Below are positions 49,355 to 54,016 of a stretch of DNA of 64,000 bases, piece by piece (the first letter of the stretch is position 1; every line of letters begins with the position of its first letter). Both the position numbers and the translations under genes were made by a program. The notes below the pieces were generated by a model. It did no database searches, had not been told where the DNA came from, and worked only from the letters and a program-made list of their open reading frames with translations. The stretch lies in assembly GCA_014728035.1 (NCBI GenBank), contig WJMJ01000131.1, forward strand, positions 96,001 to 160,000, in the 5' to 3' direction. The DNA comes from Promethearchaeota archaeon (GTDB taxonomy: Archaea > Asgardarchaeota > Thorarchaeia > Thorarchaeales > Thorarchaeaceae).

Positions 49355-50494
49355 CTATTCAGCATCCTCTATTGTTTCATGAAGAAGAGAAATCACACCC
49401 TTAAGAGACTCAACTTCGCGTTTGAGCATAGCCGTGAATTCCCTCGAATCTTGCAAATCCTCGTAGGGAATTGTTTTAGATATTTGAAACCTACCATAAA
49501 GATCGATTCTATCCTTTCCAGAATACTTCTTTTCAATATCGGAAAGAGTGAAATCGCATTCCTCAGGAACTAGTCCATATACGGAATACCCTTCTTCAGT
49601 TTTCTTTAGGGATTCTACAAATTCTTCATAGTCCAGAACCTTCATTGAAATTTTAGGTAATGGTCCTTTTCGATGAACTCTGAAATATATTTTGAATCCA
49701 TCTGGTTTCATTTTGAAAGCGAGAATTACTTTAGATTTCCATTTCTTAGATCTGAATTCTAGATTTTCGAAGGCCAGGTGTCCAGATTGTTTTTTGTCTA
49801 ATTCATCAATATTCTTCACCAAAGATGCGATATAGGGTTCTAAGTTGAATAACTGACTCCTAACAGACAGATATCCCGAGATATCTTCATTTTTGATCCC
49901 ACTAAAGGAATTCATTTTCATTTTCTCCAAAATACGTTTAGTTTCCTTGAATAGAAAGGTAGATACAGCTTGTTCACACGAATTCGGGATAGAATCCGAC
50001 TTTGTGGATTTATCAGATTCAATGAGACTGCTCAATGCTCTGTGCAGATCTTGCCATAGCATGATATCCACCGATTCTTTAGGGACTCCCTGCTTTGCAA
50101 GGACAGAGAGAATATCCTTTTTAGATTGACTAGTCTGGTCTGCAGTGACTAGAAGTCGGATATCACGATTCTTGTATCTGGTTTTTAGATCGTCATAGTA
50201 TTTTCTGAGTTGGGAACTCTTCCCAGACGCGGCGTCGTGTTCTGATTTGACTTTGCTCTCAAATCCAATGACAATTTCATCCCCGATCAGAAGACCGTCA
50301 ATACGCCCATGATCAAGTGTTTCTTGGGAATGAATTATAAAATCGCAGTCCAGTCCCTTAAGTTTATCAAAGCCCAATTTGCAAAAAAGGGCCTTGCGCC
50401 TAGCAATATCAATCTTCTCAAGTACGGCCAGAAACCAGTTAGTAAGCTGGTCCTCGTTTCTTTTGTGAGGTTGATACAAGAGAGTTAGCCCCAT
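49355..50494 (-). CDS. PD-(D/E)XK nuclease-family protein (PDDEXK_4-like N-terminus)
   Basis: NEDQLT...SQE...GRIDGLL...IGFESK...QLRKY. GGTGG before the ATG at 50494 and TTTATAT at ~50532-50538. Confidence 0.75.
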   Translation of the reverse strand: MGLTLLYQPHKRNEDQLTNWFLAVLEKIDIARRKALFCKLGFDKLKGLDCDFIIHSQETLDHGRIDGLLIGDEIVIGFESKVKSEHDAASGKSSQLRKYYDDLKTRYKNRDIRLLVTADQTSQSKKDILSVLAKQGVPKESVDIMLWQDLHRALSSLIESDKSTKSDSIPNSCEQAVSTFLFKETKRILEKMKMNSFSGIKNEDISGYLSVRSQLFNLEPYIASLVKNIDELDKKQSGHLAFENLEFRSKKWKSKVILAFKMKPDGFKIYFRVHRKGPLPKISMKVLDYEEFVESLKKTEEGYSVYGLVPEECDFTLSDIEKKYSGKDRIDLYGRFQISKTIPYEDLQDSREFTAMLKREVESLKGVISLLHETIEDAE

Positions 50495-50557
50495 CAATAC
50501 CACCGTACAAGAAGAGTGTGAATCAGGGTTGATATAAACAAATTCAGGATGTAATTG

Positions 50558-50623
50558 AGGATATGGCATATCCTCTACAGAGGACAAAGACTGCAAAAGA
50601 AAAATAGTCTGCGAGGATGATGA
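50558..50623 (+). repeat. Direct repeat copy 2 (native 23S rRNA 3' trailer/terminator)
   Basis: Matches 49282-49347. On the minus strand it contains a T-rich tract (TATTTTTCTTTT) and hairpins. Confidence 0.95.
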
Positions 50624-50790
50624 TCCACGATACACAGTAGTACACGTTCTACCCTTGGCAACTCTAGGTACTGGCGAGTTACACTTTGGAACCGCACGCC
50701 TCGGACATTAGTAGCGGTGAGCTGAACACCTCGTCGAAACTTGGTGCTTACACCCCCGCCCTATTTACCTTGTCTTCTACAAGAGTCCTC

Positions 50791-50849
50791 GTTTCCTAGC
50801 CACACGTTACTGTCACCAGTCCCGTGCTGCATTATGCGGCGCTAGTTAA
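50791..50849 (-). other. Helix 98 / ES39-like expansion segment of 23S rRNA
   Basis: About 59-nt insert between conserved domain-VI flanks, folding as a closing stem (CTAGC/GCTAG) plus two hairpins. Confidence 0.7.
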
Positions 50850-50867
50850 GTGGATATCTAGTTTTGA

Positions 50868-50906
<39 letters not shown>

Positions 50907-51187
50907 TATGGCTTAGCTACCCCACGCTGCCCGATCGGACAATGGGTACACCATAGGCCACCACGATGCGTTCCTCTCGTACCGGCATCCTGTTGCTCTC
51001 AGATATCCAACAGTCCTAATAGATAGAAACCGACCTGTCTCGCAACGGTCTAAACCCAGCTCACGTTCGATTTTAATCGGTGTGCACCCGCACCCTTCGG
51101 GCCTTATGCGACCCGAGGATATCAAGAGCCGACATCGAGGAAGCAAGCCGCGGGGTCGATAGGAACTCTTGCCCGCGACAACTCTGT

Positions 51188-51403
51188 TTGGGGGTACCCA
51201 GAACGAATCTCAGACAGGAGAGCCTAGTTGTAAACTTGCTAAACTTACCAGCTCTCAAGCCTGCCGATAACTGTCGATCCGCGTTGCTATAAATACGGTC
51301 TCCCTTACACTCACATCAGAAAATCTGACGGTCATGTATCTTTCTTGGAAAGAGAGGGAGGTCGCACTTCTAGACGCGGACACGACATTTACCGGGGGAT
51401 ACC
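51188..51403 (-). other. 216-nt ORF-less archaeal BHB intron in 23S rRNA between the A2450 and A2451 equivalents
   Basis: 5' GGGG-UA|G-GUAUCC ... GGGUAC-CCCC-AA|A 3': a 4-bp G:C central helix with two 3-nt bulges. Removal gives GGGGUAACAGAG. Confidence 0.9.
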
Positions 51404-51413
51404 TACCCCTGGG
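51404..51413 (-). other. 10-nt 23S micro-exon CCCAGGGGUA (E. coli 2441-2450 equivalent)
   Basis: Supplies the 3' strand of helix 74, complementary to CCUG-C-GG at ~51812-51825. Confidence 0.88.
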
Positions 51414-51445
51414 TTCCTCGAACTGAAGAGCGAATCTACAGTTCT
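51414..51445 (-). other. 32-nt BHB hairpin intron in 23S rRNA after the C2440 equivalent
   Basis: 5' ACUU-AC|A-GAACUG-loop-CAGUUC-GAGG-AA|C 3'. Removal gives CUUACCCCAGG. Confidence 0.88.
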
Positions 51446-54016
51446 GTAAGTTTTTTGTCATGTCTCGCCTGAACAATTGAGGAGCGAAACGTTCGCTAGG
51501 CCAGCGTTTCCGCCCTGTTCGCGTTATTGTGCGGCGAACAGTCAGCCAGACTATATACCCTTGATCTCTAGGAGACGTTTCCATCGCCTCTGAGTCTAGC
51601 ATTGGTCAGGGCTGATCTCTTGTCAGCCCTGTGCCGCCCCAGCCCAACTGCCTACATGCAGGTGTCCCTAGGCTCGCTTGGCTTAGGTTAGCCAGCCCCA
51701 ATGCCATAGTCAGTGTTACATGGTTGCATTCTCACACCCCGGAGAGTGTGATTCAACGCTCCTGACTACGCTCTGTATGACACCAGAACTGGCAGCTACA
51801 TGCTGCGTAGTAAACCTCCGCAGGGACTTCTCTTCCCATTAGGACTACATACACTGTTCGGTATGGTGTAGGTTCACCGGAGCTCTCCTGGGGACAGTGG
51901 GGCTCTCATTGCTCCCTTCATGCACGTCGGCATTTAACCGACAAGGCATATGGCTACCTTAAGAGACTCATAGTTAGTCCCGGCGTTAACCCGAGCTTAG
52001 ACCCCTTCCGGAGTTTTGACTGACGGGCACAGACCAGGATTCACTGACTGTACTAACGCTTTCGCGCTCGCAGTCAGCTATGTTTGTATTAAACAGTTGG
52101 AACCCCTGAGTTACTAAGACCTGGAAAGGCGTGAACCAATCCAGGCATGGCACATCCCGAAGTTACGCCACTAATTGGCCGATTTCCCTCAGGAGAGTTG
52201 ACTCCGATACACCTTGGTCTTCTAAACCAGGGAACCTGTGTCAGATCTGGGTACGGACTAGGAGGATTCTTCCGAACTCGATTTTCAAGGTCACCAGAAA
52301 TCGGCTGAACGAGTGTCCGACCACTCGCTATTCCACTTTTCTTCTGCTTCTCACCATTACGGTACTCGACAGAGTTATAGTGTTAAACACCGCGAAGGCG
52401 GTGCTCAGCGTATCCAGATGAGTTACAAGTTCGGCATCGCGTTGCCGCGTAACGTACCTCCTAGGTTCAGGAATATTAACCTGATTCCCTTTCGTGTTAC
52501 TCGTGTTACGATAACACTTAGGATCGACTAAGCTTCGGCTGACGACGCATTGCCGAAGAACCCTTTCCCTTTCGGTGACATGGATTCTCACCATGCTTCG
52601 CTGTTACTACTGCCAGGATCATCAAATCCGGTCGGTCAACGGGACCTCACGGCCCCACTTCTACCCAACCGGATCGCTCCGCTACCGGATCACGCAATTT
52701 TACTCGCGTGCCGTATGGTCTCGGTGACCAGATTTAGCCCCGTCCATTTTCAAGGCCGAGAGCCTCGGTCTGTGAGCTGTTACGCTTTCGTTCGGGGATA
52801 GCTGCTTCTAAGCTCACCCCCAGACTGTCTTGGGCTCTCGACTCCCTTCTTCACCGCACTTATCTGGTACTTAGGGACCTTAACCATACTCTCGGTTCTC
52901 CCCATCTCGGCCTGCCGGGCTTACCCCGGGCACCCGTCTCCTGCTGTCTACGGTTCGTGCAGATTCGGAGTTTTCAGGATGGTGAAGAACTTTACGTTCC
53001 CCGAGCCAATCCGAAAGTGCTCTACACCACACGATACCTCAAGCAGGGCTTGGCTACGACCAACTTCGCGGAGAACGAGCAATCACCAGTCTAGATAAGC
53101 CTTTTACCCCTAGACCCAGTTCAACGGAACGAGTTGCACGTCAGAACCCTATCGGGCCTCCACCGAGCTTTCGCCCGGCTTCACCCTGACCAGGTCTAGA
53201 TCGACTGGTTTCTCGTGTTATGGGAGTGACTACGCGCACTTTCACACGCCGCTCCTCACCCGAAGGTTGCGAGCATATCGGTTTCCCTACGGTTTCAGCT
53301 TGACGCCTTAACCTTGCCACGCCCATAAACTCCCTGGCCCGTGTTTCAAGACGGATGATGCTGACCCGATCCGCTTCGTTCCTACTATACGATCACTCGT
53401 AATTCGTTCACGAAGCCTCTCTTCTTTTCATCAGCATCCTTTGACTAGATTGCTGGTTTCAGGTGCTTTTCACCCCGCTTCCGCGGCACTTTTCAACTTT
53501 CGCTCGCGCTACATAGTTTACTATCGGTTTGGTCTAGTATTTAGGCTTCGCAGATTGTTACTGCGTAATTCACACGAGATTACCAACCCATGCTACTCTG
53601 GTACTTGATAATGCCTGTAAGTTGCACCTACGGGGGTTTCACCCTCTATGCCCCGTCGTTCCAGACGAGTTCGGCTTCGTTACATAGGCATATGACTCAA
53701 GCCCTTACACCACATCTCCCATAACTCTTCGCTATGGGATTCAGTTTGGCCTTTTCCCCTTTCGCTCGCTGTTACTAAGGGAATCACTGTTGTTTTCTTT
53801 TCCTGGGCATACTAAGATGCTTCAGTTCTGCCCGTTCCCGTTCCAGATTTGACCCTGGAACGAAGCAGGGTATTAACCCACTTCAGGAAGTCCAATTGGG
53901 GATCCTGCGGATCAACGCCTTCATGCGGCTACCCACAGATTATCGCAGCTTGTCGCGCCCTTCATCGGCTGACCAACCAAGTCATCCACCAACAACCGTT
54001 TAGCGAAACGCGGTCC

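Follow-up and report, generated by a model that had tools for sequence, protein, structure and literature searches.

Protein-spliced introns of the bulge-helix-bulge (BHB) class are known from the 23S rRNA genes of Crenarchaeota (Desulfurococcus, Pyrobaculum, Staphylothermus, Aeropyrum), where they occupy highly conserved sites; some carry LAGLIDADG genes and others are short and have no open reading frame (ORF). The splicing endonuclease EndA cleaves 3-nt bulges between their second and third bases. In crenarchaeal 16S rRNA, short (<50 nt) hairpin-forming BHB introns were found at seven of 13 loci, in Thermoproteales, Desulfurococcales and Aigarchaeota (Jay and Inskeep 2015, PMC4496867). The 16S gene of Pyrobaculum oguniense has two introns that are only eight nt apart, Pog.S1205, a hairpin without an ORF, and Pog.S1213, which carries I-PogI (Nakayama et al. 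2003, cited via PMC4496867). These two are co-converted by I-PogI, which cuts at the site of the small intron, and a second, similar pair, at loci 901 and 908, is separated by seven nt (PMC4496867). [quoted passage not shown]

The stretch of DNA analysed here (the window) comprises 64,000 nt, positions 96,001 to 160,000 of contig WJMJ01000131.1 from the Thorarchaeota assembly GCA_014728035.1 (G000 in our set). It contains a 23S rRNA gene in which two inserts, called intron 1 and intron 2 in what follows, flank a 10-nt piece of the peptidyl-transferase centre. The gene and its parts are listed below; E. coli positions are anchored on U2449 and A2451.

50689-54011, minus strand: LSU (23S) rRNA gene, Rfam RF02540 (LSU_rRNA_archaea), 2418.6 bits, model positions 1-2987 (full model)
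51825-51813, minus strand: helix-74 5' strand CCCUG-C-GGAGGUU, pairing with the joined exons according to the Rfam consensus structure line; parts CCCUG (51825-51821), C (51820) and GGAGGUU (51819-51813)
51459-51446, minus strand: end of the 5' exon, GACAAAAAACUUAC, approximately E. coli 2427-2440, identical in intron-free relatives
51451-51448, minus strand: ACUU, exon strand of the intron 1 central helix
51447 and 51446, minus strand: A and C, first two bases of the intron 1 5' bulge
51445-51414, minus strand: intron 1, 32 nt, relaxed BHB (HBh') mini-intron
51413-51404, minus strand: micro-exon CCCAGGGGUA, 10 nt, approximately E. coli 2441-2450; the CCCAGG within it is the helix-74 3' strand
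51409-51406, minus strand: GGGG of the micro-exon, doubling as exon strand of the intron 2 central helix
51403-51188, minus strand: intron 2, 216 nt, structured, without ORF
51187-51177, minus strand: first bases of the 3' exon, ACAGAGUUGUC; A51187 is equivalent to E. coli A2451

The pair represents a known architecture in a different gene, site and phylum. As in P. oguniense, a short hairpin BHB intron is combined with a larger intron of the homing-endonuclease type across a micro-exon (8 nt there, 10 nt here), and both introns lie in one essential rRNA gene and are co-inherited. The P. oguniense pair resides in the 16S gene of a member of the Thermoproteales, whereas here the peptidyl-transferase centre of a thorarchaeotal 23S gene is interrupted. 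Further differences are that the large intron in the window has lost any ORF and that the one relative with an endonuclease in this intron (G008) lacks the small intron. With the crenarchaeal 23S BHB introns the window pair shares its highly conserved 23S sites and, as predicted, protein splicing. The first-pass annotation, a reading of the DNA that preceded this analysis, had regarded a micro-exon pair at A2451 in an Asgard-like genome as not known to be described. That was too strong, since short hairpin introns 7-8 nt from a larger homing-endonuclease intron are known in crenarchaeal 16S genes (PMC4496867). A literature search, in which the older crenarchaeal 23S work was poorly covered, yielded no publication on BHB introns in the rRNA of Asgard archaea. 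The locus would thus extend protein-spliced rRNA introns, including the combination of a mini-intron and a large intron around a micro-exon, from Crenarchaeota to Asgard archaea, with the introns placed at the catalytic heart of the ribosome.

The two inserts beside the catalytic base A2451 are a real feature of this gene. The minus strand agrees to the base with the layout proposed in the first-pass annotation, 32 and 216 nt around a 10-nt piece, and after the 216-nt insert domain V reads ACAGAGUUGUCGCGGGC. The joined exons match the Rfam LSU_rRNA_archaea consensus CUACCCcgGGGAUAACAG without gaps, and this match places the insertion points, in E. coli numbering, at 2440/2441 and 2450/2451, where they had been proposed. 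The former is where the AC internal bulge meets the inner segment of helix 74. The predicted restoration of this helix also holds when compared with the Rfam structure line: all 11 pairs form in the joined product, ten of them Watson-Crick and one G-U. Position 2448 is a G and not an A, and this is so lineage-wide in intron-free relatives.

The spliced sequence that had been predicted occurs naturally in a gene without inserts. We took 23S genes from 27 related genomes and aligned the 15 full-length ones with MAFFT. The extra residues of the window gene form exactly two blocks, of 32 and 216 nt, which lie at core columns 2567 and 2577, ten core columns apart. A genome of the same genus (G001, 96.7% exon identity to the window gene) is free of both and reads GACAUGACAAAAAACUUACCCCAGGGGUAACAGAGUUGUCGCGGGCAAGAGUUCCU, equal to the joined exons over 94 nt; at the insert sites it has GACAUGACAAAAAACUUACCCCAGGGGUAACAGAGUUGUCGCGGGC, identical to the joined exons. 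Ten other relatives also have no inserts, and clean removal gives back the conserved mature sequence. Asgard LSU rRNAs are known to carry large expansion segments (PMC7594248), and the inserts could in principle stay in the mature rRNA as such segments. This is scarcely credible: one insert would interrupt helix 74 and the other would separate A2450 from A2451 in the catalytic core, both are entirely missing in close relatives, and their BHB-type borders are conserved.

It could also be argued that the inserts are an assembly artefact or that the gene is a decaying pseudogene, as the sequence comes from a metagenome-assembled genome (4.33 Mb searched, 173 contigs, 8.5% estimated contamination). 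However, three other independent assemblies have the same two inserts at the same positions, with sequences that covary instead of being identical. The exons are intact, with 2418 bits compared to 2390-2500 in relatives, and the Rfam search gave the window gene as the sole LSU match in the whole assembly, although the number of contigs and the estimated contamination leave room for a second, unassembled 23S copy. Both an artefact and a pseudogene therefore appear extremely improbable.

The alignment with Infernal that had been proposed as a check, with two inserts as the expected outcome, gave a different result. With the Rfam LSU model a single 271-nt insert was obtained, in which the 3' end of intron 2 was misaligned onto exon positions. 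The region concerned is 50950-51900 (minus strand), and automated annotation of such genes is locally wrong. Misalignment of such regions by covariance models means that genes of this type may be mis-annotated or discarded.

The borders of the inserts point to the protein-spliced class. In both introns four exon bases are followed by a 3-nt bulge that consists of two exon bases and one intron base and holds the 5' cut; then come the intron helix, four intron bases that pair back, two more bases, and the 3' cut. With a stroke for the cut, the bulges are AC/A (5') and AA/C (3') for intron 1, with GAACUG...CAGUUC as intron helix, and UA/G (5') and AA/A (3') for intron 2, with GGGG/CCCC as central helix. 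The bulge-helix-bulge geometry claimed in the first-pass annotation is therefore present as BHB-class borders at both positions, but in the relaxed HBh' form and not as the full motif. A canonical hBHBh' motif has a 4-bp helix between two 3-nt bulges on opposite strands, both of them closed by an outer helix. The 5' bulge of intron 2 is closed, but neither 3' bulge is closed by an exon-exon outer helix, which places both introns in the relaxed class. The ACUU/GAGG helix described for intron 1 does exist, but it amounts to three pairs plus an A.G mismatch. The same geometry is found in all four intron-1 alleles and all seven tabulated intron-2 alleles, and these covarying end helices are also present in additional alleles from a second Asgard family (f5). 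Comparison with the intron-free sequence sets the borders of every allele, and they always lie behind the second base of the 3-nt bulge. Because four intron-2 alleles end in a base other than A, there is no ambiguity about the border.

Taken together, these observations make it very probable that both inserts are archaeal BHB-class introns that are excised by proteins, with ligation of the exons to a functional 23S rRNA. We infer cleavage, ligation and the order of events from comparative evidence. Non-canonical tRNA introns are similar in having the relaxed HBh' motif and the same predicted (alpha-beta)2 EndA with L1 loop (PMC5829648). They differ in their substrate, which here is a pre-rRNA without a tRNA body to hold the exons; instead, intron 2 may supply an exon-binding loop.

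Intron 1 is a minimal stem-loop with the following layout.

51445-51414, minus strand, first part: A (third bulge base), then stem GAACUG-U-AGA, loop UUCGC, UCU-U-CAGUUC
51445-51414, minus strand, end: GAGG (pairing with exon CUU, plus the A.G mismatch), then AA before the 3' cut

According to RNAalifold with four alleles, the stem runs from the second intron base to directly before GAGG, and seven of its ten pairs show compensatory changes. The intron is not found in G001 and ten other relatives and is present, with the same geometry, in G012, G005 and a metagenome contig. It resembles the short hairpin introns of crenarchaeal 16S genes in that a minimal stem-loop forms a BHB-like motif with exon bases, contains no ORF and is distributed patchily, whereas the lineage, the gene and the site (L2440) are different.

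Intron 2 is larger and has a conserved architecture with the following elements.

51402-51397 with 51199-51194, minus strand: h' helix, GUAUCC paired with GGGUAC; it follows G, the third bulge base
between these strands, minus strand: helix P2, which closes a variable domain and is followed by hairpin P3
51256-51218, minus strand: hairpin P3, stem formed by GAGAGCUGG and CUAGGCUCUC, with a loop of 20 nt that is conserved
51210-51200, minus strand: small hairpin P4, AGA-UUCGU-UCU
51193-51190, minus strand: CCCC, pairing with exon GGGG and followed by AA before the 3' cut

RNAalifold with five homologues gave a fold of 51 pairs, 18 of which have compensatory changes. The pairs found include the exon-intron helix, the h' helix, the helix of the variable domain, P3 and the small terminal hairpin. 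An ORF was not found inside either window intron. A box C/D guide RNA was considered for intron 2 and rejected: no conserved guide stands before the conserved CUGA, which reads UUGA in G012 and in the metagenome allele. The apical hairpin of intron 1, AGAUUCGCUCU (51427-51437, minus strand), resembles the P4 hairpin of intron 2, AGAUUCGUUCU (51200-51210, minus strand), and in G005 (L017) an identical 11-mer, AGAUGCGUUCU, is present in introns 1 and 2; the resemblance is not seen in the metagenome allele. The likeness may reflect an origin by partial duplication.

In intron 2, the loop of P3 contains two blocks complementary to the exons.

51249-51241, minus strand: P3 loop block GGUAAGUUU, a perfect 9-nt complement of the 5' exon AAACUUAC/C (stroke at the junction)
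51453-51446 plus 51413, minus strand: 5' exon partner of this block
51231-51226, minus strand: P3 loop block ACAACU, complement of the 3' exon AGUUGU at 51183-51178

Both blocks are invariant in five introns that are otherwise only 44-66% identical. Among 500 dinucleotide shuffles, eight gave a 9-nt complement to the 5' exon. A complement of 6 nt to the 3' exon was obtained in 208 of them and is not significant alone, so that its weight derives only from its conservation and its position beside the 9-nt block. In the f5 family the exon has GUUACC and the intron hairpin loop has GGUAAC(UU) followed by GACAACU, a difference that we count as a single, family-level compensatory change. Duplexes of the P3 loop with the 5' exon have predicted energies of -9.5 to -14 kcal/mol. 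The endonuclease-bearing intron of G008 has no P3 loop module. That the two blocks arose by inverted duplication of target-site sequence can be dismissed, as their order is opposite to that in the reverse complement.

From these complementarities it can be proposed, tentatively, that the P3 loop plays an active role by pairing with both exon flanks, GGUAAGUUU with AAACUUACC in the 3' strand of helix 74 and ACAACU with AGUUGU in the 5' strand of helix 89. Several functions can be considered. The pairing could replace the outer helix that is missing from the splicing motif. It could also prevent the 5' and 3' exons from drifting apart while four cuts and two ligations take place. A third option is that it acts as a chaperone which masks the peptidyl-transferase strands until splicing, either as a built-in element or in trans as a stable excised circle. 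Pairing with ACUU would compete with the central helix of intron 1, a speculative hint that intron 1 is removed first. If the proposal is true, a protein-spliced intron possesses an exon-binding element, a trait otherwise associated with self-splicing introns, and a functional P3 loop would give such introns a new means of arranging their exons.

Sequences complementary to both exons also bring to mind a degenerate self-splicing group I intron, with the P3 loop as its internal guide sequence. Position L2449 is a classic group I site. Archaeal LSU genes can indeed carry group I introns (PMC6125680). [quoted passage not shown] A group I core would not fit into introns of 144-216 nt, the blocks that could bind the exons are located close to the 3' end in an order opposite to that of P10/P1, and the borders fit the BHB motif with covariation. 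A group I origin of intron 2 is hence barely plausible, and protein splicing remains the preferred explanation.

Related introns are present in other genomes, and the survey of Asgard 23S genes for intron-plus and intron-minus alleles that had been suggested in the first-pass annotation yielded both kinds, within genera and across families. The tabulated alleles outside the window are the following.

G012: intron 1, 32 nt; intron 2, 186 nt
G005: intron 1, 33 nt; intron 2, 285 nt
Metagenome contig Ga0164310_10104255 (L157): intron 1, 32 nt; intron 2, 224 nt
G011: intron 1 absent; intron 2, 144 nt
G008: intron 1 absent; intron 2, 791 nt
G028 (another family): intron 1 absent; intron 2, 344 nt

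A pattern search found the twin layout in three of 400 genomes of the phylum, all in the family of the window genome, with no match in the reversed control; the two besides the window genome belong to other genera. Together with the metagenome contig, the host rRNA of which is nearest to another genus group (about 92% identity), the layout is known from four lineages, namely the window genome, G012, G005 and L157. An earlier metagenome pattern built on intron-2 motifs matched nothing; it required CGTTCT, where the metagenome allele has CGATCT. Identity between alleles is 44-66% for the introns compared to 83-92% for the exons, with identical cut-site geometry. The introns are thus old and diverged and not copies of one assembly error. 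Three pairs of genomes (G000/G001, G005/G020 and G008/G023) consist of one intron-bearing and one intron-free member, and the 23S tree has three cases in which a gene with the intron is sister to one without, which indicates that precise loss or gain is frequent.

The site of intron 2 has a wider distribution. In the f5 family, 12 of 31 genomes have an intron at 2450/2451, and each of the five genera is represented among them. The window introns encode no homing endonuclease, but the G008 intron at the same site does: it contains a 242-aa ORF (L018, 4123-4851, plus strand) with a LAGLIDADG_3 domain (PF14528, 42.8 bits), which identifies 2450/2451 as a homing site. The intron family at this site is therefore mobile now or was so formerly. 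Intron 2 is a member of this old family, which bears an endonuclease in at least one relative, and the introns without an ORF are likely to be derivatives that have long resided there, or relatives. A 426-aa ORF at 49355-50635 (minus strand), 54 nt downstream of the 23S 3' end, was considered as a free-standing homing nuclease. It gave only sub-threshold PD-(D/E)XK matches (20.9 and 17.4 bits, with a cut-off of 22.3 for the better one), and a role in intron mobility is therefore unsupported.

The genome encodes the machinery that splicing of relaxed motifs would require. Two EndA paralogues (PF01974), at L154:1216-1782 and L155:1213-1815, share 34% identity. One of them matches the catalytic repeat and has the Y...H...K pattern intact, whereas the second aligns to the structural repeat, has an N in place of the His and gives faint matches to beta subunits. 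The two would fit the (alpha-beta)2 enzyme reported for Asgard archaea. There is one gene for the ligase RtcB (592 bits to PF01139), with Candidatus Thorarchaeota MAGs as closest named relatives (76-82% identity). Gene content thus includes RtcB and an endonuclease that is predicted to cut relaxed motifs.

In view of the above, a pathway can be proposed. In the precursor, the four exon bases upstream of each 5' splice site would pair with the four intron bases before the 3' site. The 5' cut would be made in the 3-nt bulge between this exon-intron helix and the covarying intron stem, and the 3' cut two bases past the exon-intron helix, in the unclosed 'bulge'. The heteromeric (alpha-beta)2 endonuclease would cut after the second bulge base at four sites. 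RtcB would then ligate the 10-nt micro-exon to exon 1 on one side and to exon 3 on the other, and would probably circularise the introns. Helix 74 and the peptidyl-transferase core could form only after joining. If all four cuts preceded ligation, the free 10-nt exon would be hard to hold. The idea that ribosome function here needs two splicing events 10 nt apart, already put forward in the first-pass annotation, agrees with the presence of a single 23S gene and stands as a prediction from comparative evidence; any working ribosome of this organism would depend on tRNA-splicing enzymes.

A variant of this pathway stops before ligation: the inserts are cut out but the ends are never rejoined, so that the mature 23S rRNA is fragmented and the 10-mer is either held by pairing or lost. 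Fragmented rRNAs are known from other organisms, and ligation is the step that we infer here. However, G2447 and A2450 are part of the 10-mer, and only about 6 bp of helix 74 would keep it in place. The geometry of the cut sites agrees with that of EndA, the products of which are substrates of RtcB, and RtcB is encoded in the genome. For the analogous introns in crenarchaeal rRNA, splicing has been described (PMC4496867). We consider fragmentation highly improbable and retain excision with ligation as the favoured outcome.

Intron 1 is one of a class of predicted minimal introns of about 30-33 nt that are present at several sites in these genomes. Other inserts of 30-31 nt were found in domains V-VI of the relatives G001, G003 and G004, at positions other than those of the window introns. 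In G001 (L010), the helix-89 loop region of the 23S gene has a 30-nt perfect HBh' mini-intron with GUUC CU/U, a 9-bp stem and GAAC AG/A, at a site where the window gene has no intron. Further insert pairs in domains V-VI measure 31 and 216 nt in G003 and 429 and 30 nt in G004. The same minimal design also occurs inside a protein-coding gene of the window genome. A eukaryote-type actin (419 bits) is encoded on the window's contig; a Pfam search for profilin as an Asgard marker gave no match in the genome and none in the controls either, and is uninformative. The thorarchaeotal assignment is supported by this actin and by the named relatives of RtcB. At L158 1051-1080 (minus strand; contig G000:C103) the actin gene contains a 30-nt HBh' mini-intron with CCAG AA/U, a 9-bp stem, the loop AUUCC and CUGG UA/A, which corresponds to the plan of intron 1 (1 nt, stem-loop, 4 nt and 2 nt). 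The insert holds a TAA stop codon, and its removal gives back the conserved tail TFQKMWVSRKEF.
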